Assembly: GCF_055900595.2 (NCBI RefSeq)
Contig: NZ_CM148325.1
Direction: 5' to 3' (one strand)
DNA: 64,000 nucleotides
The first letter of the stretch is position 1; each line of letters opens with the position of its first letter. Below are positions 25,540 through 56,040 of the stretch, in pieces. Position numbers and translations under genes: made by a program. The notes under the pieces were generated by a model. The model was not told the origin of the DNA and did not search any database. It was given only the letters and a program-made list of their open reading frames with translations.

Positions 25540-26250
25540 AGGAGTGTGGCCGACAGCATATCGGCCACATTTTTGTGCACAGAAAACCCCCAGCTAGGCT
25601 GGGGGTTCCGGAAAGCTTTCAGCTTTGAGCCAGTTATTAAAACCCCTTTTGATTTGTTAAAACACCTTGCGGTCTGGCAACTGCAAGTGTCAAACAAGAA
25701 ATCAAAAGGGGGTCCCAATGGGGGACGAAAAGAGCTTAGCGCACACCCGCTGGAACTGTAAATATCACATAGTTTTTGCGCCGAAATACCGAAGACTGGC
25801 GTTTTACGGAGAGAAGCGTAGGGCGATAGGCAGTATTTTGAGAAAGCTGTGTGAGTGGAAAAGCGTACGGATTCTGGAAGCAGAGTGCTGCGCAGATCAT
25901 ATCCATATGCTTGTGGAAATCCCACCCAAAATGAGCGTATCCGGCTTTATGGGATATCTGAAAGGGAAAAGCAGTCTGATGCTTTACGAGCAGTTTGGGG
26001 ATTTGAAATTCAAATACAGAAACAGGGAGTTCTGGTGCCGAGGGTACTATGTCGATACGGTGGGTAAGAACACGGCGAAGATACAGGACTACATAAAGCA
26101 CCAGCTTGAAGAGGATAAAATGGGGGAGCAGTTATCGATTCCATATCCGGGCAGCCCGTTTACGGGCCGTAAGTAACGAAGTTGAATGCAAATGTCAGAT
26201 CGTATGCGCCTGTTAGGGCGCGGCTGGTAACAGAGCCTTACAGGCGCATT
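25540..26250 (+). mobile_element. IS200 (IS200/IS605 family), about 0.7 kb, boundaries approximate
   Basis: Contains tnpA below; left end carries the characteristic perfect hairpin gtggccgacagcatatcggccac and a second stem cccccagctaggctggggg upstream of tnpA. Confidence 0.8.
25718..26176 (+). CDS. tnpA: IS200 Y1 (HuH) transposase TnpA
   Basis: MGDEKSLAHTRWNCKYHIVFAPKYRR...HIHMLVEIPPK...YIKHQLEEDK; HuH motif; near-identical to recalled IS200 TnpA. Confidence 0.92.
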   Translation: MGDEKSLAHTRWNCKYHIVFAPKYRRLAFYGEKRRAIGSILRKLCEWKSVRILEAECCADHIHMLVEIPPKMSVSGFMGYLKGKSSLMLYEQFGDLKFKYRNREFWCRGYYVDTVGKNTAKIQDYIKHQLEEDKMGEQLSIPYPGSPFTGRK

Positions 26251-43408: not shown

Positions 43409-44659
<1,251 letters not shown>

Positions 44660-47244: not shown

Positions 47245-48129
47245 TCAGAACAGGTGATCCCACAGTGTGACCAGCAGGTGGATAATGCGGTCCCGGGTTT
47301 TGCGCAGAAGCTGTAACATCCAGGCCGGAAAACTGAAACGGGCAACGGCGTCGTCAAAACTTTTCCCGATGGTTTCACCAAAAGTCTGTTGTGCGTGTTT
47401 CTGGACCCGTTCAGAGCGGTTTTCCCCCCGGATATGTGAATAAACCGCGCTGGTTGCCTGTGGCGGCAGGGCGTGGATCATCAGTGACACCAGTGCCGGA
47501 ATATTCCAGCCGACAGGCGCGGCAACGGGGAGTACCGGAAATGATGAAGGGAACAGGGTTGCCACCCGGGCTGTCACCGTCGCCAGCGAGAGTTCCTGGT
47601 GACGGGACGGGCATTTTTCTGTGTCGTTCCATTCTTCAGCAGGAAATACGCGATCGGCATGGCTGAGAACAAACAGAAAACGCGAGGGATCTGCACCTTC
47701 ATTCAGTAAAAACTGATGCATGGCGATGTCGGCAGCATACGCACGTTCATCAGCCCGCAGGATCCAGATAATCAGATCCAGTTCGGGCAGTAACTGACTG
47801 TAAAGTGCCCGGTATTCCTGATCATGCTGTGGTGTTTCGCCAGTGCCGGGCAGATCGACCAGCGTCATTCTTCGTTCACCGGGCTGAAAGGTAAGACGAT
47901 GAGCCTGACGGGTGCAGCCGTTCAGCGGATGCGTGGCGCAGACACGGGACTGAAAAATGGCATTGCACAGGCTGCTTTTTCCGGCACCGGATTTACCCAT
48001 AATGCCAATCACGGGCTCGTAATGAATAACACTGTGGAGATGTTCAAGGATTTTCTGGCGAATTTCTTCAGGAAGAAACGTCAGATATGATTTCACTTGT
48101 GCGGAGAGGGAAGAATGGCTGAATGACAT
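47245..48129 (-). CDS. Island-associated GTPase (YeeP/YfjP/YkfA family)
   Basis: 294-aa ORF with P-loop GIMGKSGAGKSSL and DLPG switch motif. Confidence 0.8.
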   Translation of the reverse strand: MSFSHSSLSAQVKSYLTFLPEEIRQKILEHLHSVIHYEPVIGIMGKSGAGKSSLCNAIFQSRVCATHPLNGCTRQAHRLTFQPGERRMTLVDLPGTGETPQHDQEYRALYSQLLPELDLIIWILRADERAYAADIAMHQFLLNEGADPSRFLFVLSHADRVFPAEEWNDTEKCPSRHQELSLATVTARVATLFPSSFPVLPVAAPVGWNIPALVSLMIHALPPQATSAVYSHIRGENRSERVQKHAQQTFGETIGKSFDDAVARFSFPAWMLQLLRKTRDRIIHLLVTLWDHLF

Positions 48130-48234
48130 ACCGGTATCCTGTTGATTTCACTGAACCGGATCACACTAATCCGGTTTATCATTCAGGTAATATGGGCGTG
48201 AAAAAATCTGGAGTGACAAAGTTCGGGAGGAGTG

Positions 48235-49185
48235 ATGGCATCACTGTCGATTAATACGCTACGCCGAATGAGCATTTGTAAAAGTCAGGCCTGGAAAGAT
48301 ACCCAGCGAATACTGAAGCGTAGTGGACTTGTGTACAGAGGGGAACGGTCAGAATCGTTTGATCCTGAGAAACATTTTAATCGTTATACGGTGCGTTATC
48401 TGTACCTGCTTAACATAATTGCGCTTAAGATAAGGTCGGTTAGTAAATTTTCCTGTTGGATCGAGGTGGGACAATGCCATCGTATGACTGGTAAACATTT
48501 ATCTCTTAATGCCCCGCCTTTTATGCTGATTCCGCGTAGTATCCGGAGAAAAGTGGATGGATTCAGACAGTCAAAAGGTGAAGCAACCCCAAAATCGGCT
48601 CAACCGTTCACGGGCAGTTTGTATGAGGTTTTGAGAAAGGAGAGCGATTCAGCTAAGCTGGACGCATGGATTGCTGAACTGCCTCTGAACTTGCAGGAGG
48701 AGGGAAAGGAAATCTCAGTCATGGGATTTAGTCCACGGGCTGTGGCCCGACCTGTTCTTCGGTCAGCATCCCCGACGTTTGAACTGTTTTATCAGGAGTA
48801 TCAATCCCTAAGATTAAAATCTGTTTTTAAATTTGAACCAAGATTTGAACAACTTTTAACAAGACTGAGCTTTAGAAAACAATCAATTCTCAGAAAACAA
48901 CAATACAGGGTTAAATCGCAATTACTGGAGAGACTGGGGAATGTGTTGTTTTTCACGTCGCTTTATAACCAGGGATGTTTAGAGGAGTTTATAAATGCAC
49001 TTGTGGAAAAGGAGGACATTTATCTGAAAATGTCCCCTGGGGAGGAAAAGGTGAAAGCACACCAGAAAATGGTTAACTACATTGAAGCGTTCTGCAACAA
49101 AATGACGGAAAAATACCTGATGCCCGCAGCAAGCAGACACTACAAAAAGAAGAAAATCGCCAGGAGCGAAAGTGGTGAAAGTTAA
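48235..49185 (+). CDS. Hypothetical basic protein (gene A of convergent AT-rich pair)
   Basis: 316 aa from ATG at 48235 (GGAGG upstream); low-GC codon usage unlike the flanking backbone; no family recognised. Confidence 0.5.
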   Translation: MASLSINTLRRMSICKSQAWKDTQRILKRSGLVYRGERSESFDPEKHFNRYTVRYLYLLNIIALKIRSVSKFSCWIEVGQCHRMTGKHLSLNAPPFMLIPRSIRRKVDGFRQSKGEATPKSAQPFTGSLYEVLRKESDSAKLDAWIAELPLNLQEEGKEISVMGFSPRAVARPVLRSASPTFELFYQEYQSLRLKSVFKFEPRFEQLLTRLSFRKQSILRKQQYRVKSQLLERLGNVLFFTSLYNQGCLEEFINALVEKEDIYLKMSPGEEKVKAHQKMVNYIEAFCNKMTEKYLMPAASRHYKKKKIARSESGES

Positions 49186-49970
49186 TCCAGTCTATCGTAC
49201 AGAATCAGTTGTTCCAGAATAGCCTGCTGTGTTGTTTTCCGCTCTCTGGTCAGTCTGTCCAGAGCGCTTTTTGCGGATGGCGATATCTTTACGTTGATTT
49301 GTACCCGTTTATCTTTTTTTCCATCGATAAACTGTTTTCTGAATGCATTGTGCATCTTGTCGAAAAATCTTTCTTTTGCAGCGAATCCTAGGTGAAATTC
49401 TTTTGGCGTCAGTAAACAGGGTGTGTCTGTGGGGAATAACATTTTTAGTAAAACTACAATGGCAATATATCTTTCGTTATCATTTACAGGATTAAACCAG
49501 GAAAGATATGTGGGTGAGATACGTGCATCAATATATTCCCATGCCCATTTCAGTTGTTCGGTATTCTTTTTAAGCCATTTGGCTTCGTTTCTCTTTTCGA
49601 GTCCCAGCCAGTTTTGATGCATTATTGAGATAATCCGATCTGCTTCCCCATAAAGGATTAACGCATTAATCCATTTCCCTATAACATTCAGTCGTGTTTC
49701 ATGACTTGAAGGAATAATTGTCATGGGGTTATCCTTCATAACGATCACCCCCTTCAAGGCAGAGTTGAACTCAGATTCATTATTAAGTTTAAGTTTTTCG
49801 GGAACTGTATGAGACATAATTAACCAGAACCAGAATGCTGCAATTTCATTTTTTCTGATCCATTCAGGTATGTGATTATCTGCCAGATTATTATCATTCA
49901 ATAAATGCTCGGTTGTTTTATTTTTCCAGTCATATCTATTCACGTTATAACCGCCTTTATATTGTTTCAT
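49182..49970 (-). CDS. Hypothetical protein with C-terminal ribbon-helix-helix-like motif (gene B)
   Basis: 262 aa from ATG at 49970 (GAGG upstream; ORF track extends to a GTG at 50057); C-terminus KRVQINVKISPSAKSALDRLTRERKTTQQAILEQLI has strand-helix-helix pattern; stop overlaps gene A stop in a TTAA. Confidence 0.5.
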   Translation of the reverse strand: MKQYKGGYNVNRYDWKNKTTEHLLNDNNLADNHIPEWIRKNEIAAFWFWLIMSHTVPEKLKLNNESEFNSALKGVIVMKDNPMTIIPSSHETRLNVIGKWINALILYGEADRIISIMHQNWLGLEKRNEAKWLKKNTEQLKWAWEYIDARISPTYLSWFNPVNDNERYIAIVVLLKMLFPTDTPCLLTPKEFHLGFAAKERFFDKMHNAFRKQFIDGKKDKRVQINVKISPSAKSALDRLTRERKTTQQAILEQLILYDRLD

Positions 49971-50087
49971 CTGATTACGCCTCAATCGTTTTCTTTTCTG
50001 GTGATTTTCACCATCACATGTCAGTTGTATATGCAAGGGGATCAATAAAAATATCACCCTGCAAGCACTTCAAAGCTGATTATGGGG

Positions 50088-50151
50088 ATATTCTAGAACT
50101 ATTCACAAAACTATTCCAGACATATCAAGAACTATTTCTTGACCTATTCAT
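50088..50151. repeat. Four iteron-like direct repeats A(A/C)CTATT(C/T) upstream of gene B
   Basis: tagaactattcac, aaaactattcca, agaactatttctt, gacctattcat within 64 bp. Confidence 0.45.
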
Positions 50152-50323
50152 AATAAAATAAAACATGCTATCAACTACGGCTCATATTCTCCTTGGGGGT
50201 GTCGTTGTACTGTTCGACTGTTCTTGTGGTCAGATTAACAATCTGAAGAGTAAAAGCGACAGTAATCTGTCTGTTATAGTGGCGATAAAAACACTGAATG
50301 CGCATCCTGTATGTGAAATCCTG

Positions 50324-50590
50324 TCATGTAGAGCAGTAAGCAATGACAGACATGCATGTTATATGTGAAGGGGGCCGGGAGACGACATAATCAGTATGGC
50401 TGTCATTCTGGTTGTAAAACGCGATCACTTTCCGGGGGTAAAAGATGATATGGAGGTTGACAAACGGTTTGCTTCGGATTGTCTTTTCTGGGGCCTGAAA
50501 TACGAGGGCAGAAAAATAATTCCAGAGTAAATCTGCTCTGTTTTTAGGACAGAAAACTCCATGCTGGCTGTAAAAGTGAAAAATTAACAC
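50324..50590 (-). pseudogene. 3' portion of an unidentified ORF interrupted by IS10
   Basis: 88-aa frame begins inside the IS10 target duplication; the same frame is open across the duplication into the sequence on the far side of IS10 (51935 onward). Confidence 0.35.
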
Positions 50591-50596
50591 CCAGTA

Positions 50597-51925
50597 CTGA
50601 TGAATCCCCTAATGATTTTTATCAAAATCATTAAGTTAAGGTAGATACACATCTTGTCATATGATCAAATGGTTTCGCCAAAAATCAATAATCAGACAAC
50701 AAAATGTGCGAACTCGATATTTTACACGACTCTCTTTACCAATTCTGCCCCGAATTACACTTAAAACGACTCAACAGCTTAACGTTGGCTTGCCACGCCT
50801 TACTTGACTGTAAAACTCTCACTCTTACCGAACTTGGCCGTAACCTGCCAACCAAAGCGAGAACAAAACATAACATCAAACGAATCGACCGATTGTTAGG
50901 TAATCGTCACCTCCACAAAGAGCGACTCGCTGTATACCGTTGGCATGCTAGCTTTATCTGTTCGGGCAATACGATGCCCATTGTACTTGTTGACTGGTCT
51001 GATATCCGTGAGCAAAAACGGCTTATGGTATTGCGAGCTTCAGTCGCACTACACGGTCGTTCTGTTACTCTTTATGAGAAAGCGTTCCCGCTTTCAGAGC
51101 AATGTTCAAAGAAAGCTCATGACCAATTTCTAGCCGACCTTGCGAGCATTCTACCGAGTAACACCACACCGCTCATTGTCAGTGATGCTGGCTTTAAAGT
51201 GCCATGGTATAAATCCGTTGAGAAGCTGGGTTGGTACTGGTTAAGTCGAGTAAGAGGAAAAGTACAATATGCAGACCTAGGAGCGGAAAACTGGAAACCT
51301 ATCAGCAACTTACATGATATGTCATCTAGTCACTCAAAGACTTTAGGCTATAAGAGGCTGACTAAAAGCAATCCAATCTCATGCCAAATTCTATTGTATA
51401 AATCTCGCTCTAAAGGCCGAAAAAATCAGCGCTCGACACGGACTCATTGTCACCACCCGTCACCTAAAATCTACTCAGCGTCGGCAAAGGAGCCATGGAT
51501 TCTAGCAACTAACTTACCTGTTGAAATTCGAACACCCAAACAACTTGTTAATATCTATTCGAAGCGAATGCAGATTGAAGAAACCTTCCGAGACTTGAAA
51601 AGTCCTGCCTACGGACTAGGCCTACGCCATAGCCGAACGAGCAGCTCAGAGCGTTTTGATATCATGCTGCTAATCGCCCTGATGCTTCAACTAACATGTT
51701 GGCTTGCGGGCGTTCATGCTCAGAAACAAGGTTGGGACAAGCACTTCCAGGCTAACACAGTCAGAAATCGAAACGTACTCTCAACAGTTCGCTTAGGCAT
51801 GGAAGTTTTGCGGCATTCTGGCTACACAATAACAAGGGAAGACTCACTCGTGGCTGCAACCCTGCTTACTCAAAATCTATTCACACATGGTTACGTTTTG
51901 GGGAAATTATGAGGGGATCTCTCAG
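50597..51925 (+). mobile_element. IS10 (IS4 family), complete 1329-bp copy
   Basis: Outside end CTGATGAATCCCCTAATGATTTT at 50597, inside end ...GGGGATCTCTCAG at 51925; perfect 9-bp target-site duplication CACCCAGTA at 50588-50596 and 51926-51934. Confidence 0.93.
50704..51912 (+). CDS. IS10 transposase
   Basis: 402-aa ORF MCELDILHDSLYQFCPELHLKRLNSLTLACHALLDCKTLTLTELGRNLPTKARTKHNIKRIDRLLGNRHL... matching recalled IS10/Tn10 transposase almost exactly. Confidence 0.95.
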   Translation: MCELDILHDSLYQFCPELHLKRLNSLTLACHALLDCKTLTLTELGRNLPTKARTKHNIKRIDRLLGNRHLHKERLAVYRWHASFICSGNTMPIVLVDWSDIREQKRLMVLRASVALHGRSVTLYEKAFPLSEQCSKKAHDQFLADLASILPSNTTPLIVSDAGFKVPWYKSVEKLGWYWLSRVRGKVQYADLGAENWKPISNLHDMSSSHSKTLGYKRLTKSNPISCQILLYKSRSKGRKNQRSTRTHCHHPSPKIYSASAKEPWILATNLPVEIRTPKQLVNIYSKRMQIEETFRDLKSPAYGLGLRHSRTSSSERFDIMLLIALMLQLTCWLAGVHAQKQGWDKHFQANTVRNRNVLSTVRLGMEVLRHSGYTITREDSLVAATLLTQNLFTHGYVLGKL

Positions 51926-53005
51926 CACCCAGTATGTATGGAAGTCTGAAGATGTTGAGAATGTCGGTATGATACTATATACACATATTTTACTAAGTAT
52001 TTTTACTAAGCATTTCAGTAAGTGTTATACACGTATTTTCTACTAAGTGTTTTACCAGACATACACGTGTTTTCATAAACAGCCCTATAAGTGTTTTCAT
52101 TAAGCATTGCTGTACACATTGCTTTGTCTGAAACACATCCAGTTTAGTAAATCTTTACGTTAGCTAAAATCAGTTTAAAGCTGCTGTAAAACCTTTCTGT
52201 TTAAGCAATCAATCTGCTATTCGATTTTACTGATGTTGCGTTTAACCTTTTCTGAGATTTCGAGTTTCGACGTTAGCATGAGAAAAGTATCTTTACGCTA
52301 AATCAACCCGAACTTTCCTGAAGTAATCTGACGTTTTTTTCGATGTGCTTACGACGATTCTGTTAAACGACTTTCTGGATGTTTTGATAACAATCAGATT
52401 GAGGCATTAACGATTCCTGACGTTTTCTTTTCCGTGTAAGGTCATTCTTTTTGTCATGAGGTTTCTTCTTGCATTGCGAAAGTGTGATGAACGGTTTTGG
52501 TGTTTTTGATTCAGATAAGGTTTACGTTATCGATGGTTAACCGTTTTTATGGTGCGTAGTGAAACGTAACTTTTTCAGGATGAGAAAATCGATTCTGATG
52601 TTGGTGATTTTTGTTCTTGTGGCGGGGTTTATCTGTAAACAGGTTTTAAACGTGTCATTCACATCCGTGATTGAGTTGTGTGATTAAGCTGTAGGTTTTG
52701 GGGTTGTTGTTGATTTGCATTACCAGGAAGCGTTCTGGTTGCGTTTCTGGTGTTTTGTTCGAATGTTCTGTGGATCCTTTTCCCTTCTGACTTTTCTCGT
52801 TGTCCATGTCGTTTTTAAATCCATTCGCTGTTCTTGAGTGTTTTTACCCTGCGTGTAGAATTATCTTTTCGTTCCGGGATGGTTTGTTCCGTTTCAATCA
52901 CTCTTAATCAGAGAGTTGTAGCATTGCTCAATGCCGGATGCCGTAAAGTTTTACCGCGGTGATTAATGATGTGAAGTCAATCCAAATCAACGGAGATCTC
53001 TCATC

Positions 53006-53737
53006 ATGAATCAACCAATACACAATGCTTACTGGTTATCCCGTTTTGAAAGTATTCTCAACAGTGCCCTGGCGCAGCACCGTGCCGTCTCGTTAATCCG
53101 GGTGGATTTACGTTTCCCTGAGTATATGCCTGCCACCATCATGGATACCGATTTAGATTCAGCGGTGATTTCTCGTTTTTTTGCATCCCTGAAAGCAAAA
53201 ATTCAGGCTTACCAGCGACATAAACGACGTGCCAACAAGCGTGTGCGTGCAACCACTCTGCGTTATTTCTGGTGTCGGGAGTTTGGCAAGGAAAAAGGCA
53301 GGAAACATTATCACGTGATATTACTGCTCAACAAAGATACCTGGTGCTCGCCAGGGGATTTCACCGTTCCTTCTTCGCTGGCGACACTGATCAAGCTGGC
53401 ATGGTGTAGTGCTCTGCATCTTGAGCCCTGGCAGGGTAATGGACTGGTTCATTTTTCCAGGCGGACGCCTTTCCGTAAACCGACATCATCTGATGCTCGC
53501 CCTTCTTCCGATGATACGCCTTTGTCGGGTGGATGTTCTGATACCAGGAAGGCTTCAGACAAAAAGCCGGGTGAAGCCGCTGTTCTCTGGATCAAGCGTG
53601 GTGATGTGGAAGCGCTGCAGAAAGCCCGGAACAGAGCCAGTTATCTCGTGAAATATGAGACGAAGCAGCATGACGGTTCCGGGCAACGTAATTATGGTTG
53701 CAGTCGTGGGCCGGGGCGTCTGCTGGATGGCAGGTGA
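53006..53737 (+). CDS. YagK/YfjJ-family protein (island-associated, inovirus Gp2-like)
   Basis: 243-aa ORF with ...LIRVDLRFPEY...KHYHVILLLNKD... motifs; preceded by conserved leader motif. Confidence 0.6.
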   Translation: MNQPIHNAYWLSRFESILNSALAQHRAVSLIRVDLRFPEYMPATIMDTDLDSAVISRFFASLKAKIQAYQRHKRRANKRVRATTLRYFWCREFGKEKGRKHYHVILLLNKDTWCSPGDFTVPSSLATLIKLAWCSALHLEPWQGNGLVHFSRRTPFRKPTSSDARPSSDDTPLSGGCSDTRKASDKKPGEAAVLWIKRGDVEALQKARNRASYLVKYETKQHDGSGQRNYGCSRGPGRLLDGR

Positions 53738-54063
53738 GCCCTGTAAAACGACATCCGGTGTCTGAGCTTATGCTACAGGACGTTGGCTGACGCCCTTAGC
53801 TCGTTTTCTGAAAAAGTCGTCCTGAAGTCATGCAACGGTATTTTTCTCTGCTTTCGCTCCTGGAAACACTCCGTCGGTAAAACCTTACTGTCCTGCTTAA
53901 TGATGTGAACCGAAGTCAACGGAGATCATTCATTCTGAACCTGCATCCGGTGTTCTGTCCCTTGTCGGTTACCTGATCTTCCCGTTCTGCCGCGGTTTTT
54001 CACTTATTCCATCAACCCCATACGCAAGCCATAACACGTCAGCGCATCCACGGGCAGGACGCG

Positions 54064-54666
54064 TTGTGGGCTGCGTATAACGGAACATATCTTATGAATG
54101 CTATCCCTTATTTCGACTATAGCATGGCGCCCTTCTGGCCATCTTATCAGAACAAAATCATCGGCGTTCTCAACCGTGTGTTGCGCGAGCAGTCCGGCTC
54201 CAGGATACGGCGGATCCTGCTTCGTCTGCCGGGGGAACATGGCAACATCTTCAGCGACAGAAAAACCTGGTTCGGTATGGCCTTTATCGAAACCGTCAGT
54301 GCGCTGATGAATGCAACCCCCGGACGCGACCTCTGCTGGCTCCTGACACGTCATCCTGAAAAACCGGAATACCACGTGGTGCTGTGCGTCAGACAGGAAT
54401 ATTTCGACGGCCCTGAGCTGGACCGGTTGATTCTGGATGCCTGGAGCAACGTACTGGGCTTCGCGTCACCGGGTGAAGCAGCACCGTACCAGAAACAGAT
54501 AACCCGGGATGTGGTGCTGGACAGTTGTTCACCGGACTGCGAAGAGAGACTCAAAGAGCTGATATGGGCGTTCAGTGATTTCGCCCGCGATCGTCGTGGT
54601 GTGCGCGATCCGGAAGCCCGTTACCTCGCCGGTAATCCCTGGTATCCCGTAGCAGGCCAGCTCTGA
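54064..54666 (+). CDS. YagK/YfjJ-family paralog
   Basis: 200-aa ORF with corresponding motifs RILLRLPGEH and PEYHVVLCVRQE; same leader motif upstream; true start may be an internal Met. Confidence 0.55.
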   Translation: MWAAYNGTYLMNAIPYFDYSMAPFWPSYQNKIIGVLNRVLREQSGSRIRRILLRLPGEHGNIFSDRKTWFGMAFIETVSALMNATPGRDLCWLLTRHPEKPEYHVVLCVRQEYFDGPELDRLILDAWSNVLGFASPGEAAPYQKQITRDVVLDSCSPDCEERLKELIWAFSDFARDRRGVRDPEARYLAGNPWYPVAGQL

Positions 54667-54734
54667 AAGCTCAGCTCAGCAGATTCACCCGCATTTGCCC
54701 AACATTCATAAATCTCACAGAGGACATTCTGACC

Positions 54735-54971
54735 ATGTTGACCTCAATGACAGGTCACGACAGCGTATTGCTGCGTGCCGACGATCCCCTGATCGACATG
54801 AACTACATCACCAGCTTCACTGGTATGACCGACAAATGGTTTTACAAGCTGATCAGTGAAGGCCATTTCCCTAAACCCATCAAACTGGGGCGCAGCAGCC
54901 GCTGGTACAAAAGTGAAGTGGAGCAGTGGATGCAGCAACGAATCGAGGCATCACGAGGGGCAGCAGCATGA
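54735..54971 (+). CDS. AlpA-family phage/island transcriptional regulator (excisionase-like HTH)
   Basis: 78-aa ORF with ...YITSFTGMTDKWFYKLISEGHFPKPIKLGRSSRWYKSEVEQWM. Confidence 0.78.
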   Translation: MLTSMTGHDSVLLRADDPLIDMNYITSFTGMTDKWFYKLISEGHFPKPIKLGRSSRWYKSEVEQWMQQRIEASRGAAA

Positions 54972-55720
54972 AACGTGTTGTAATGCCGGTACGCTGGCAA
55001 TGTGCAAAATACCAGCGTTGGTATTGTGGAAATCAGCCCTGTCCCTGGTGCTGGCGACCTGCTGCCCCCGTCTGTCATTCCTCGTTCTTCGCTGTAACAG
55101 GCATCGTACCGGTCTCGGCGTGCTTTCCTGCGTACCGACACCGGTTCAGCAACATTCAAGGGGATCAAATCGTGCAAATAACCGAAACCGTACTTTCAGA
55201 GCCGGTGGAAATCCGGCGTTTTATTCAGCAGGCGGTGGATCACTGGCCGCGTCTGCTGGCCGTCCACTTCACACTCCATTCGGCAGAAGGAAACATCAAC
55301 GGACAACAGATTCATGCATTCTGTACTTCCTTTTACCGACAGGTGCACGAGCGTATTACTGAACGTAATCACACGGCCAGTCCAGCACCACCGGTGGTAT
55401 TACGCTGGTTGCGGGAACAACATGGAGGAGCAACAATGCGATGCCTGTTGCTGCTCAGCCAGACGAGCATTTGCCATCCACGGGTCAGTGCCACGGTTGA
55501 TGAAGAATGTTCGCAACGGGTGGATTTATTGCAACAGACATGGCGGGTGATAAGTGCTGACGGACAATGCCGGGTGGAAAGGTGTTTTCAGGCTGCCCGG
55601 GGTGATACATCCGGCCAGTATATTGCGTTAAAAACAGTTGCATTGTCTCTGGGGTTACCGGTTGTGACCGGTATTACCCATCGCCCGGTACAGCGCTGTA
55701 CATTGATTACAGCTCAGTGA
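54968..55720 (+). CDS. Hypothetical protein with cysteine-rich N-terminus
   Basis: ATG at 54968 overlaps alpA stop (ATGA); N-terminus has CAKYQRWYCGNQPCPWCWRPAAPVCH; alternative GTG start near 55174; no family recognised. Confidence 0.4.
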   Translation: MKRVVMPVRWQCAKYQRWYCGNQPCPWCWRPAAPVCHSSFFAVTGIVPVSACFPAYRHRFSNIQGDQIVQITETVLSEPVEIRRFIQQAVDHWPRLLAVHFTLHSAEGNINGQQIHAFCTSFYRQVHERITERNHTASPAPPVVLRWLREQHGGATMRCLLLLSQTSICHPRVSATVDEECSQRVDLLQQTWRVISADGQCRVERCFQAARGDTSGQYIALKTVALSLGLPVVTGITHRPVQRCTLITAQ

Positions 55721-55737
55721 ACAGCGCTGTTGTGCAG

Positions 55738-56040
55738 TCAACGAGGTTTTCTGTCTTTTCGTCGGTCATTCAGCATCATTAAACGGGTCTCTGCCTCTTT
55801 CTGTTCCTGTGGTGTCACTTCCCCGCACGGCTGACCGTTCAGGTTGTAACGGGCGCCACCTGCTATTAACGCACGGTAATAGCGCGGAGACTGCACATAA
55901 GACGCCACTGCTGCATGTAATGTACCAGCGCCAAACGCCAGTTCTCGGATGGCGATATCCTGTATCAGGTCGTCAGGTATCCCCACTTTAAGTGGTTTTG
56001 TTTTTTTCCCGGTTGAATGACTCAGGCCAGAGTTCCACAA
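55738..56040 (-). CDS. Hypothetical 100-aa protein
   Basis: ORF only; basic C-terminus; no family recognised. Confidence 0.3.
   Translation of the reverse strand: MWNSGLSHSTGKKTKPLKVGIPDDLIQDIAIRELAFGAGTLHAAVASYVQSPRYYRALIAGGARYNLNGQPCGEVTPQEQKEAETRLMMLNDRRKDRKPR

Follow-up and report, generated by a model that had tools for sequence, protein, structure and literature searches.

The window, by which is meant the whole 64-kb stretch of DNA analysed, carries a complete, intact IS10, an insertion sequence of the IS4 family with a DDE transposase. Its sequence identifies the allele as IS10-Left of Tn10, not IS10-Right. Taken as a whole, the account of an intact IS10-Left placed by a recent, lineage-private cut-and-paste insertion into a non-coding leader is very probably correct. 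The site lies within a CP4-like island adjoining ynjB, a degenerate, cryptic E. coli genomic island of the CP4 type. In kind the finding is already known, as few insertion sequences have been studied as thoroughly as IS10, and it matters little in that E. coli often carries solo IS10 copies flanked by 9-bp duplications. It does correct the annotation of the locus, which is read here as an intergenic insertion with no disrupted gene. The features are collected in Table 1.

Table 1. Features at and around the IS10 insertion, in window coordinates.
Feature	Position	Strand	Basis or remark
Hypothetical protein WP_000816188.1, nearest real gene at left	49182..49970	-	PGAP of empty-site genomes mapped to the window; ORF
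Chance ORF, 88 codons, GTG start in left duplication	50324..50590	-	Neither conserved nor annotated
Left edge of conserved non-coding leader, interrupted by IS10	50501..50596	+	Homology among divergent islands
Target-site duplication, left copy, 9 bp, CACCCAGTA	50588..50596	.	
IS10	50597..51925	+	Outside end at left, transposase on + strand; labelled "ISVsa5" by PGAP and ISfinder
Outside-end terminal inverted repeat, 23 bp	50597..50619	+	Exact match, unique in window
RNA-OUT antisense RNA gene	50642..50711	-	Rfam RF00240
GATC (Dam) site, pIN region, IS position 67	50663..50666	.	
IS10 transposase gene, intact, 402 aa	50704..51912	+	ORF; Pfam DDE_Tnp_1 PF01609, E 1.5e-24
Inside-end terminal inverted repeat, 23 bp	51903..51925	-	Exact match, unique in window
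GATC (Dam) site, inside end, IS position 1320	51916..51919	.	
Target-site duplication, right copy, 9 bp, CACCCAGTA	51926..51934	.	
Rest of conserved ~1.15-kb leader, up to YagK/YfjJ-family gene	51935..53005	+	
Degenerate 13-bp tandem array, consensus TTTTACTAAGTAT, 5.2 copies	51988..52053	+	TRF, repeat finder, motif count
Inovirus Gp2 family protein (YagK/YfjJ), 243 aa	53006..53737	+	Pfam PF11726, E 2.9e-36; PGAP name

The element and its allele

The element measures exactly 1329 bp and is bounded on both sides by a copy of CACCCAGTA. Its left terminus is the outside end, CTGATGAATCCCCTAATGATTTT, and its right terminus is the reverse complement of the inside end, CTGAGAGATCCCCTCATAATTTCCCC; each of the two has a single exact match in the 64-kb window and none in shuffled sequence. 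As inverted repeats the terminal 23 bp are imperfect, agreeing at 17 of 23 positions. The transposase gene is intact, and in a copy with identical DNA on plasmid R100 its product is annotated as WP_001352368.1. The antisense RNA-OUT is recovered over the full Rfam model (1-70), scoring 97.3 bits where the gathering score is 41 (E 4.8e-19). It is read from pOUT toward the outside end and overlaps the start codon of the transposase. GATC occurs only twice in the element, once in the pIN region and once at the inside end. Dam sites at these two places have a regulatory role in established IS10 biology, which also supplies the chemistry of transposition and the role of RNA-OUT.

Comparison with the two copies of Tn10 in R100 separates the alleles. 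The window IS10 is identical at 1329 of 1329 positions to the copy at NC_002134.1 36132-37460, which adjoins gltS/jemA, and because of this match to the jemA/gltS-side copy it is taken to be the left one. From the tetD-side copy, IS10-Right (L005 17819-19147), it differs by 15 nt (98.9% identity), at IS positions 24, 25, 27, 47, 83, 107, 410, 425, 903, 1249, 1268, 1271, 1272, 1281, and 1300. Three of these differences (47, 83, and 107) fall inside RNA-OUT, the latter two in the RNA-OUT/RNA-IN overlap, and the transposase differs from the IS10-Right protein by four amino acids (I266V, S381L, T389A, and V398A). All 15 lie outside IS positions 1000-1230, in agreement with what is stated for IS10L versus IS10R (PMC11481808). 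The assignment draws on the gene order of Tn10 (PMC5571418), the R100 annotation and the statements in PMC11481808. An earlier note, made from the sequence, had named the element correctly as IS10 and had overlooked that the allele is the left rather than the right one.

With IS10-Left of Tn10 the window element shares the ends, transposase, RNA-OUT and both GATC sites. Unlike that copy, it is a solo IS10 with a 9-bp duplication of its own rather than an arm of Tn10, and neither a second IS10 end nor tet genes were found in the 64-kb window. Length, organisation, ends, 9-bp duplication, and target preference are likewise common to IS10-Right, the classical active IS10 (GenBank J01829), from which the 15 nucleotides and four residues set it apart. 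Further counterparts are solo copies in E. coli, including nupG::IS10 in DH5alpha, IS10L in NEB5alpha and insertions in cloning vectors, which have the same allele and a clean 9-bp duplication.

Copies of IS10 in NEB5alpha, a DH5alpha derivative, are termed IS10L (PMC11481808), and solo copies 100% identical to that of the window are present in many E. coli chromosomes, including that of DH5alpha. The allele is present at full length in about 1,170 of 5,426 genomes, in chromosomes as well as plasmids, from animal and human sources. As a guide to which of the two alleles is commoner, counts by identity band are confounded by partial copies and by Tn10 itself. One report describes IS10-Left as inactive (PMC11148124), which raises the question of which transposase mobilised the window copy. 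De novo insertions of IS10L have nevertheless been seen (PMC11481808), and the present element would add one more natural example of IS10-Left moving, though the literature still calls the allele inactive.

Target duplication, empty site and recency

The two CACCCAGTA copies form a perfect direct repeat, 1338 bp apart. The repeat is exactly 9 bp long, with differing bases adjoining it, and identity over 9 bp at two fixed positions has a chance of 4^-9, or about 4e-6. Two target consensuses have been described for IS10, the hot spot NGCTNAGCN and the relaxed NRCNNNGYN (PMC4574204). CACCCAGTA agrees with the hot-spot (strict) form at 3 of 6 positions and fits the relaxed form fully, a weak test of target fit as the latter is expected once per 64 bp. 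Solo IS10 copies elsewhere likewise occupy sites that fit the relaxed consensus only (PMC11481808, PMC4574204, PMC2758499).

Many E. coli genomes have the site in its empty state, where CACCCAGTA occurs once and the 2-kb flanks are 100% identical; in several of them 2001 of 2001 bp are the same. In the empty-site genome DG341-1, the alignments of the two flanks overlap by exactly the 9 bp of CACCCAGTA, as a single copy would produce. An uninterrupted homologue of the site is present in 722 genomes. The filled site, searched for with at least 80% coverage of IS and flanks, was found in 0 of 5,426 complete E. coli genomes, and an exact search of GTDB representative genomes for the left junction gave 0 matches. 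In this respect the insertion is unlike other solo IS10 copies, as none of the 5,426 has one at this island site next to ynjB. Not a single nucleotide separates the window IS10 from its reference copies.

The empty sites with identical flanks, together with the lack of any filled site among the 5,426 genomes, support a simple, recent and probably lineage-private transposition. This bears out the earlier note on two points, namely a complete 1329-bp element with a perfect 9-bp duplication, and a simple and probably recent transposition followed by no rearrangement. Absence from the 5,426 genomes also makes the insertion a lineage marker. IS10-Left would have arrived by the usual cut-and-paste route, in which the transposase excised the element and cut the target CACCCAGTA with a 9-bp stagger. 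Gap repair would then have produced the flanking direct repeat, with the element landing at the left edge of the non-coding leader in the degenerate CP4-type island next to ynjB.

A recent and private insertion could also have arisen in the laboratory, through IS10 hopping out of a cloning strain of E. coli or in the course of laboratory passage, in which case it would not be present in the natural isolate. Cloned DNA is documented to acquire artefactual IS10 insertions from hosts that include DH10B and JM107 (PMC2758499; Kovarik et al. 2001 therein). Identity of the allele to the DH5alpha copies, and the same absence from the 5,426 complete genomes and the GTDB representatives, would fit such an origin. 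Against it, the window shows no sign of vector sequence, and the allele is common in natural isolates from animals and humans (the roughly 1,170 genomes above), so that a natural origin is at least as likely. A laboratory artefact is, on balance, very improbable.

The minus-strand frame at the target

The earlier note had also held that a gene was split, as the minus-strand frame ending at 50324 is open straight across the duplication. The openness of the frame is real. With IS10 removed, the restored site has a minus-strand frame that is open for 120 codons, from a stop at 50324-50326 to a TAA at restored positions 50687-50689. The split gene does not follow from it, as removal of IS10 in silico yields no spanning coding sequence with a start. 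The only in-frame starts are a GTG at 50590, within the left duplication, a GTG at 50428 and an ATG at 50353. Right of the insertion point there is no in-frame ATG, GTG, or TTG. Since every start lies left of the IS, no startable coding sequence crosses the insertion point. Nor does any Shine-Dalgarno-like sequence precede the GTG in the duplication.

The frame is also broken in homologous islands that are 84-98% identical. In two of them (L002 and L003) a stop codon falls at the site corresponding to the duplication; another (L006) has a 1-bp frameshift and a fourth (L007) several stops. The 3' two-thirds of the frame have no homologue in more divergent islands. When the 1.6-kb gap is shuffled with dinucleotides preserved, 120 open codons are reached in 10% of the shuffles and an ORF of 88 aa in 33%. 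A Pfam search of the frame gave no match. In 40 of 40 sampled genomes, and in four inspected empty-site loci, the PGAP annotation has no feature under the site.

In favour of a real gene are the 120 open codons across the restored site, a length exceeding that in 90% of the shuffles, and occasional overlapping gene calls, which amount to 22 sporadic clusters among 5.8 billion proteins, mostly on short contigs. Weighed against the missing start, the broken homologues and the empty Pfam and PGAP results, it is extremely unlikely that IS10 interrupted a protein-coding minus-strand gene ending at 50324, a claim that the conservation test already contradicts. A small lineage-specific gene at the site is conceivable from sequence alone. 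The preferred reading is that the insertion is intergenic, with a target that is probably non-coding and no gene disrupted.

A plus-strand ORF of 44 aa (50396-50530) was considered as a target as well. It ends 58 bp before the site, so IS10 misses it. This ORF is annotated by PGAP in some genomes and is broken by indels in two of the islands (L006 and L007).

The conserved leader and its island

By alignment of related islands, IS10 struck a conserved, apparently non-coding leader of about 1.15 kb at its left edge; the leader stands upstream of the YagK/YfjJ gene. Homology among divergent islands starts at about 50498-50512, and a hairpin with a T-run, resembling a terminator, stands at 50523-50545, at the start of this left edge. 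Mean column identity over the leader is 81% in eight islands that are otherwise 71-88% identical. PGAP places only sporadic small hypothetical CDSs in the part right of IS10. The leader is detectable in about one third of E. coli genomes, always in CP4-type islands among the loci examined. The 13-bp array within it resembles iterons and differs in copy number between islands; related TAAGYRT motifs run on to about 52107. The insertion site is about 50 bp from the array, and near-invariant sequence follows it directly.

The gene downstream of the leader encodes a protein that resembles HUH Rep proteins, with a match to PF23343 (REP_ORF2-G2P, E 3.4e-10) and the motifs HYHVILLL and YLVKY visible in the translation. 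Apart from the leader and repeat array beside this Rep-like gene, the locus is already understood throughout.

Two kinds of signal were considered at the target and set aside. One is a promoter, for which a TTGAGA...TATACA pair can be picked out by eye just right of the insertion; it is not called by a consensus scan, which finds fewer promoter-like sites than in shuffles and none at the insertion point. The other is a structured RNA. In an RNAalifold run on seven homologues around the site, compensatory pairs numbered 0 and the covariation term was positive (a penalty); scanned against Rfam by E-value, the empty site (L001 6300-8150) matched no family.

IS10 has outward promoters, pOUT reading leftward and pIII/OUTIIp rightward. 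An effect on function could accordingly take two forms, in which the leader or array of the Rep-like gene is cut off from its upstream sequence, or the outward promoters alter the neighbouring genes. Such an effect would be compatible with the preferred account of the insertion itself, as it concerns only the outcome. The site falls in a block conserved among islands down to 71% identity, with the near-invariant sequence and the array close by. pOUT is directed at the minus-strand gene 49182-49970, which lies downstream of it at a distance of about 630 bp, and transcripts that start inside IS10 have been discussed as activators of adjacent genes (PMC11481808). On the other side, the insertion point shows no promoter-like site, Rfam family or covariation for RNA structure, the Rep-like gene is 1.07 kb away, and the island, which holds many IS fragments and pseudogenes, is degenerate. 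A functional effect is on these grounds unlikely, and the insertion most likely had a neutral outcome or, at the most, a regulatory one.

A bolder version of this idea holds that the locus is an uncharacterised HUH Rep-like module and that IS10 hit its cis-acting control or origin region. The putative module would consist of the hairpin, the conserved block, the 13-bp iteron-like array, the ~1-kb leader and the YagK/YfjJ (inovirus Gp2-like) gene; a lesser point of the reading is that IS10-Left, supposedly inactive, would have made a clean de novo hop. This reading is unlikely. If the module were indeed a working rolling-circle replication or mobilisation unit, the strain would be a natural insertion mutant of it.

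The island itself differs from other CP4-type islands in its locus next to ynjB and in having no integrase or tRNA within the window. BLASTN of window positions 48001-56000, minus IS10, against CP4-57 and CP4-6 of K-12 gave no match for the region, its flanks or the downstream gene. K-12 yagJ was considered as a counterpart of that gene, as its product also has 243 aa and it stands beside an IS1; with a BLASTP E-value of 0.58 it is not homologous. The shared backbone is that of CP4-57, CP4-44, and SRL-PAI-like islands, with genes for a YeeP/YfjP-like GTPase, DUF932, an antirestriction protein, RadC/JAB, and DUF987. Also common to CP4-type islands are the CbtA/YeeU toxin-antitoxin pair, YagK/YfjJ proteins and the isrC sRNA.

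The IS10 element and its empty site

The earlier note placed a complete IS10 with a 9-bp target duplication at 50588-51934, and this description holds. A direct repeat of exactly 9 bp, CACCCAGTA, encloses 1329 bp that start with the IS10 outside end, CTGATGAATCCCCTAATGATTTT, and finish with the reverse complement of the inside end, CTGAGAGATCCCCTCATAATTTCCCC. Each end occurs once in the 64-kb window and not at all in shuffled sequence, and 17 of the 23 terminal positions match as inverted repeats. Only two GATC sequences are found in the element, at IS positions 67 and 1320, which we take to be the Dam-regulated sites of established IS10 biology, in the pIN region and at the inside end. Over its full length, the element matches many copies on Escherichia coli chromosomes and enterobacterial plasmids at 100% identity; PGAP names these copies "IS4-like element ISVsa5 family transposase". 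As a feature, IS10 is already known.

The isolates with an empty site that the earlier note proposed seeking proved numerous. With the IS and 1 kb on either side as query, the flanks are contiguous over 2001 bp in many E. coli chromosomes, several of them 100% identical, and no record showed a filled site (at least 80% coverage). Aligned to strain DG341-1, the two flanks share exactly 9 bp; therefore the empty site of that strain holds a single CACCCAGTA. A 510-bp query representing the restored site (IS10 and one duplication copy removed) is uninterrupted in 722 genomes, and the left IS10 junction was not found in GTDB representative genomes. Together with the perfect duplication and the zero divergence of the IS10 from reference copies, these results support a simple, probably recent transposition, as the earlier note had proposed, and one private to this lineage. 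The target matches the relaxed IS10 consensus NRCNNNGYN and agrees with the hot-spot consensus, NGCTNAGCN, at three of six positions (PMC4574204).

On plasmid R100 (NC_002134.1), a copy identical to the window element adjoins gltS/jemA, which identifies the window element as the IS10-Left allele. The Tn10 arm beside tetD differs from the window element by 15 nucleotides and four amino acids (I266V, S381L, T389A, V398A). None of the 15 differences lies within IS positions 1000-1230, where IS10-Left and IS10-Right are the same (PMC11481808), in agreement with this assignment. So is the presence of the same allele in DH5alpha, as the copies in its derivative NEB5alpha are named IS10L (PMC11481808). 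IS10-Left has been reported as inactive (PMC11148124), and a de novo insertion of IS10L has also been reported (PMC11481808). The clean insertion in the window is another natural example of this allele moving.

Judged from the 64 kb of the window, the insertion may be a laboratory artefact: IS10 hops from cloning hosts are documented (PMC2758499), and the allele is shared with DH5alpha. Full-length copies of the window IS10 are found in ~1,170 of 5,426 complete E. coli genomes, so the insertion is no less likely to have arisen naturally.

Coding potential across the insertion point

The earlier note also held that a gene had been split. Its observation of an open frame is borne out: after in silico excision of IS10, the minus-strand frame with its stop at 50324-50326 spans 120 open codons. 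The only in-frame starts are GTG 50590 (within the left duplication), GTG 50428, and ATG 50353, and thus no startable coding sequence crosses the insertion point. Among homologous islands, L002 and L003 (97-98% identical) carry a stop where the duplication would be, L006 has a 1-bp deletion, and L007 has several stops in the frame. In more divergent islands, homology starts only at window ~50498-50512, which leaves the 3′ two-thirds of the frame without any counterpart. Dinucleotide shuffles of the 1.6-kb gap yield an open frame of at least 120 codons in 10% of trials and a startable ORF of at least 88 aa in 33%.

The translation has no Pfam match and, among 5.8 billion proteins, matches only 22 sporadic, unnamed, length-variable gene calls, yet the underlying DNA is present in well over a thousand genomes. 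None of 40 sampled genomes has a PGAP annotation under the site, and neither do the four empty-site loci inspected. With start codons, conservation, chance, protein matches, and annotation all opposed, it is very unlikely that IS10 interrupted a real protein-coding gene, and the split gene was rejected. The earlier reading is therefore partly supported: the insertion is a real transposition, and no gene is disrupted.

A hypothetical 44-aa ORF, annotated by PGAP in some genomes, ends 58 bp left of the site; it is unconserved, and indels break it in L006 and L007. Its end lies in a terminator-like hairpin with a T-run, which also forms the left border of a conserved leader.

Features of the locus and of the wider window
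Feature	Position	Strand	Description
STnc490	25585-25708	plus	Hfq-binding sRNA family, full-length match, 146 bits
Island segment	43402-44658		1,257 bp, contains isrC
isrC sRNA	44468-44590	minus	Rfam, 145 bits
Left gap neighbour	49182-49970	minus	hypothetical gene
44-aa ORF	50396-50530	plus	WP_000268384.1
Conserved leader	50501-50596, 51935-53005	plus	no conserved annotated genes
Hairpin	50523-50545		terminator-like
Target duplication	50588-50596, 51926-51934		CACCCAGTA
RNA-OUT	50642-50711	minus	Rfam, 97.3 bits (gathering score 41)
IS10 transposase ORF	50704-51912		402 aa; DDE_Tnp_1, E 1.5e-24; sole long ORF in element
Degenerate tandem array	51988-52053		TRF; 13-bp unit, TTTTACTAAGTAT, 5.2 copies
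Small hydrophobic ORF	52559-52687	plus	…MRKSILMLVIFVLVAGFICKQ…
Right gap neighbour	53006-53737	plus	"inovirus Gp2 family" gene, 243 aa
99-bp tandem repeat	59506-59817		3.2 copies, 96% matches

The conserved leader and consequences of the insertion

IS10 lies in a ~1.7-kb gap without conserved annotated genes. The 243-aa protein to its right matches PF11726 (YagK_YfjJ_C, E 2.9e-36) and PF23343 (REP_ORF2-G2P, E 3.4e-10), and its HYHVILLL and YLVKY sequences look like motifs 2 and 3 of HUH endonucleases (Rep). The reference annotation shows another YagK/YfjJ-domain gene ~1.5 kb to the right of this one. The conserved leader, ~1.15 kb that precede the first gene and start 80-90 bp left of the IS10 site, has a mean column identity of 81% in islands that are otherwise only 71-88% identical and differ in their neighbouring modules, which are unrelated. 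Of the 5,426 E. coli genomes, 1,862 have a homologue of this leader; K-12 CP4-6 and CP4-57 gave no BLASTN match to it. No Rfam family matched the leader, no promoter was called at the IS10 site, and no covariation supporting an RNA structure was found around the site.

The 13-bp array, ~50 bp right of the site, is interleaved with ACACRTRTTT motifs, and related motifs extend to ~52107. Its copy number depends on the island, with ~50 extra bp in L006 and L012 and fewer copies in L011. The array is iteron-like and upstream of the HUH Rep-like gene; a role of the leader as origin or operator for this protein is speculative. The small ORF in the leader becomes MRKSILMVMVMV… through a (GATGGT)n expansion in L007 and L009, and its C-terminus is island-dependent. 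It could encode a small membrane peptide or be merely a repeat-prone stretch.

The insertion is most likely neutral. As the outside end faces left, pOUT is directed at the minus-strand neighbour, ~630 bp away, and the inside end is oriented towards the Rep-like gene at ~1.07 kb; regulatory effects are possible.

Probable horizontal acquisition of the island

The right half of the window is a degenerate CP4-type island beside ynjB, encoding a YeeP-like GTPase, DUF932, an antirestriction protein, RadC/JAB, DUF987, a CbtA/YeeU toxin-antitoxin pair, and isrC, with many IS fragments. At 100% identity, window 1-25000 matches a small lineage that includes strain E200086; this strain has ynjB-ynjA-ydjZ at the locus without the island. 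The island (39700-64000) is 99.7-100% identical to those of unrelated strains, DG341-1 and TUM9803 for instance, and its matches come from chicken and human strains. A core lineage without the island and island matches in unrelated strains suggest that it was acquired horizontally; the IS10 insertion came later and is private.

The core part (1-38000), which includes the STnc490 match, is 100% identical to a rare lineage, with only eight genomes at 99% identity or above (E200086 is from Mali). The arrangement suggests a recent horizontal gain of the island with loss of ynjA and genes beyond. The isrC-containing segment is missing from the DG341-1 island, which is otherwise 98-99.97% identical, and the 99-bp repeat falls within what the annotation of the reference island gives as a YadA-like adhesin gene.
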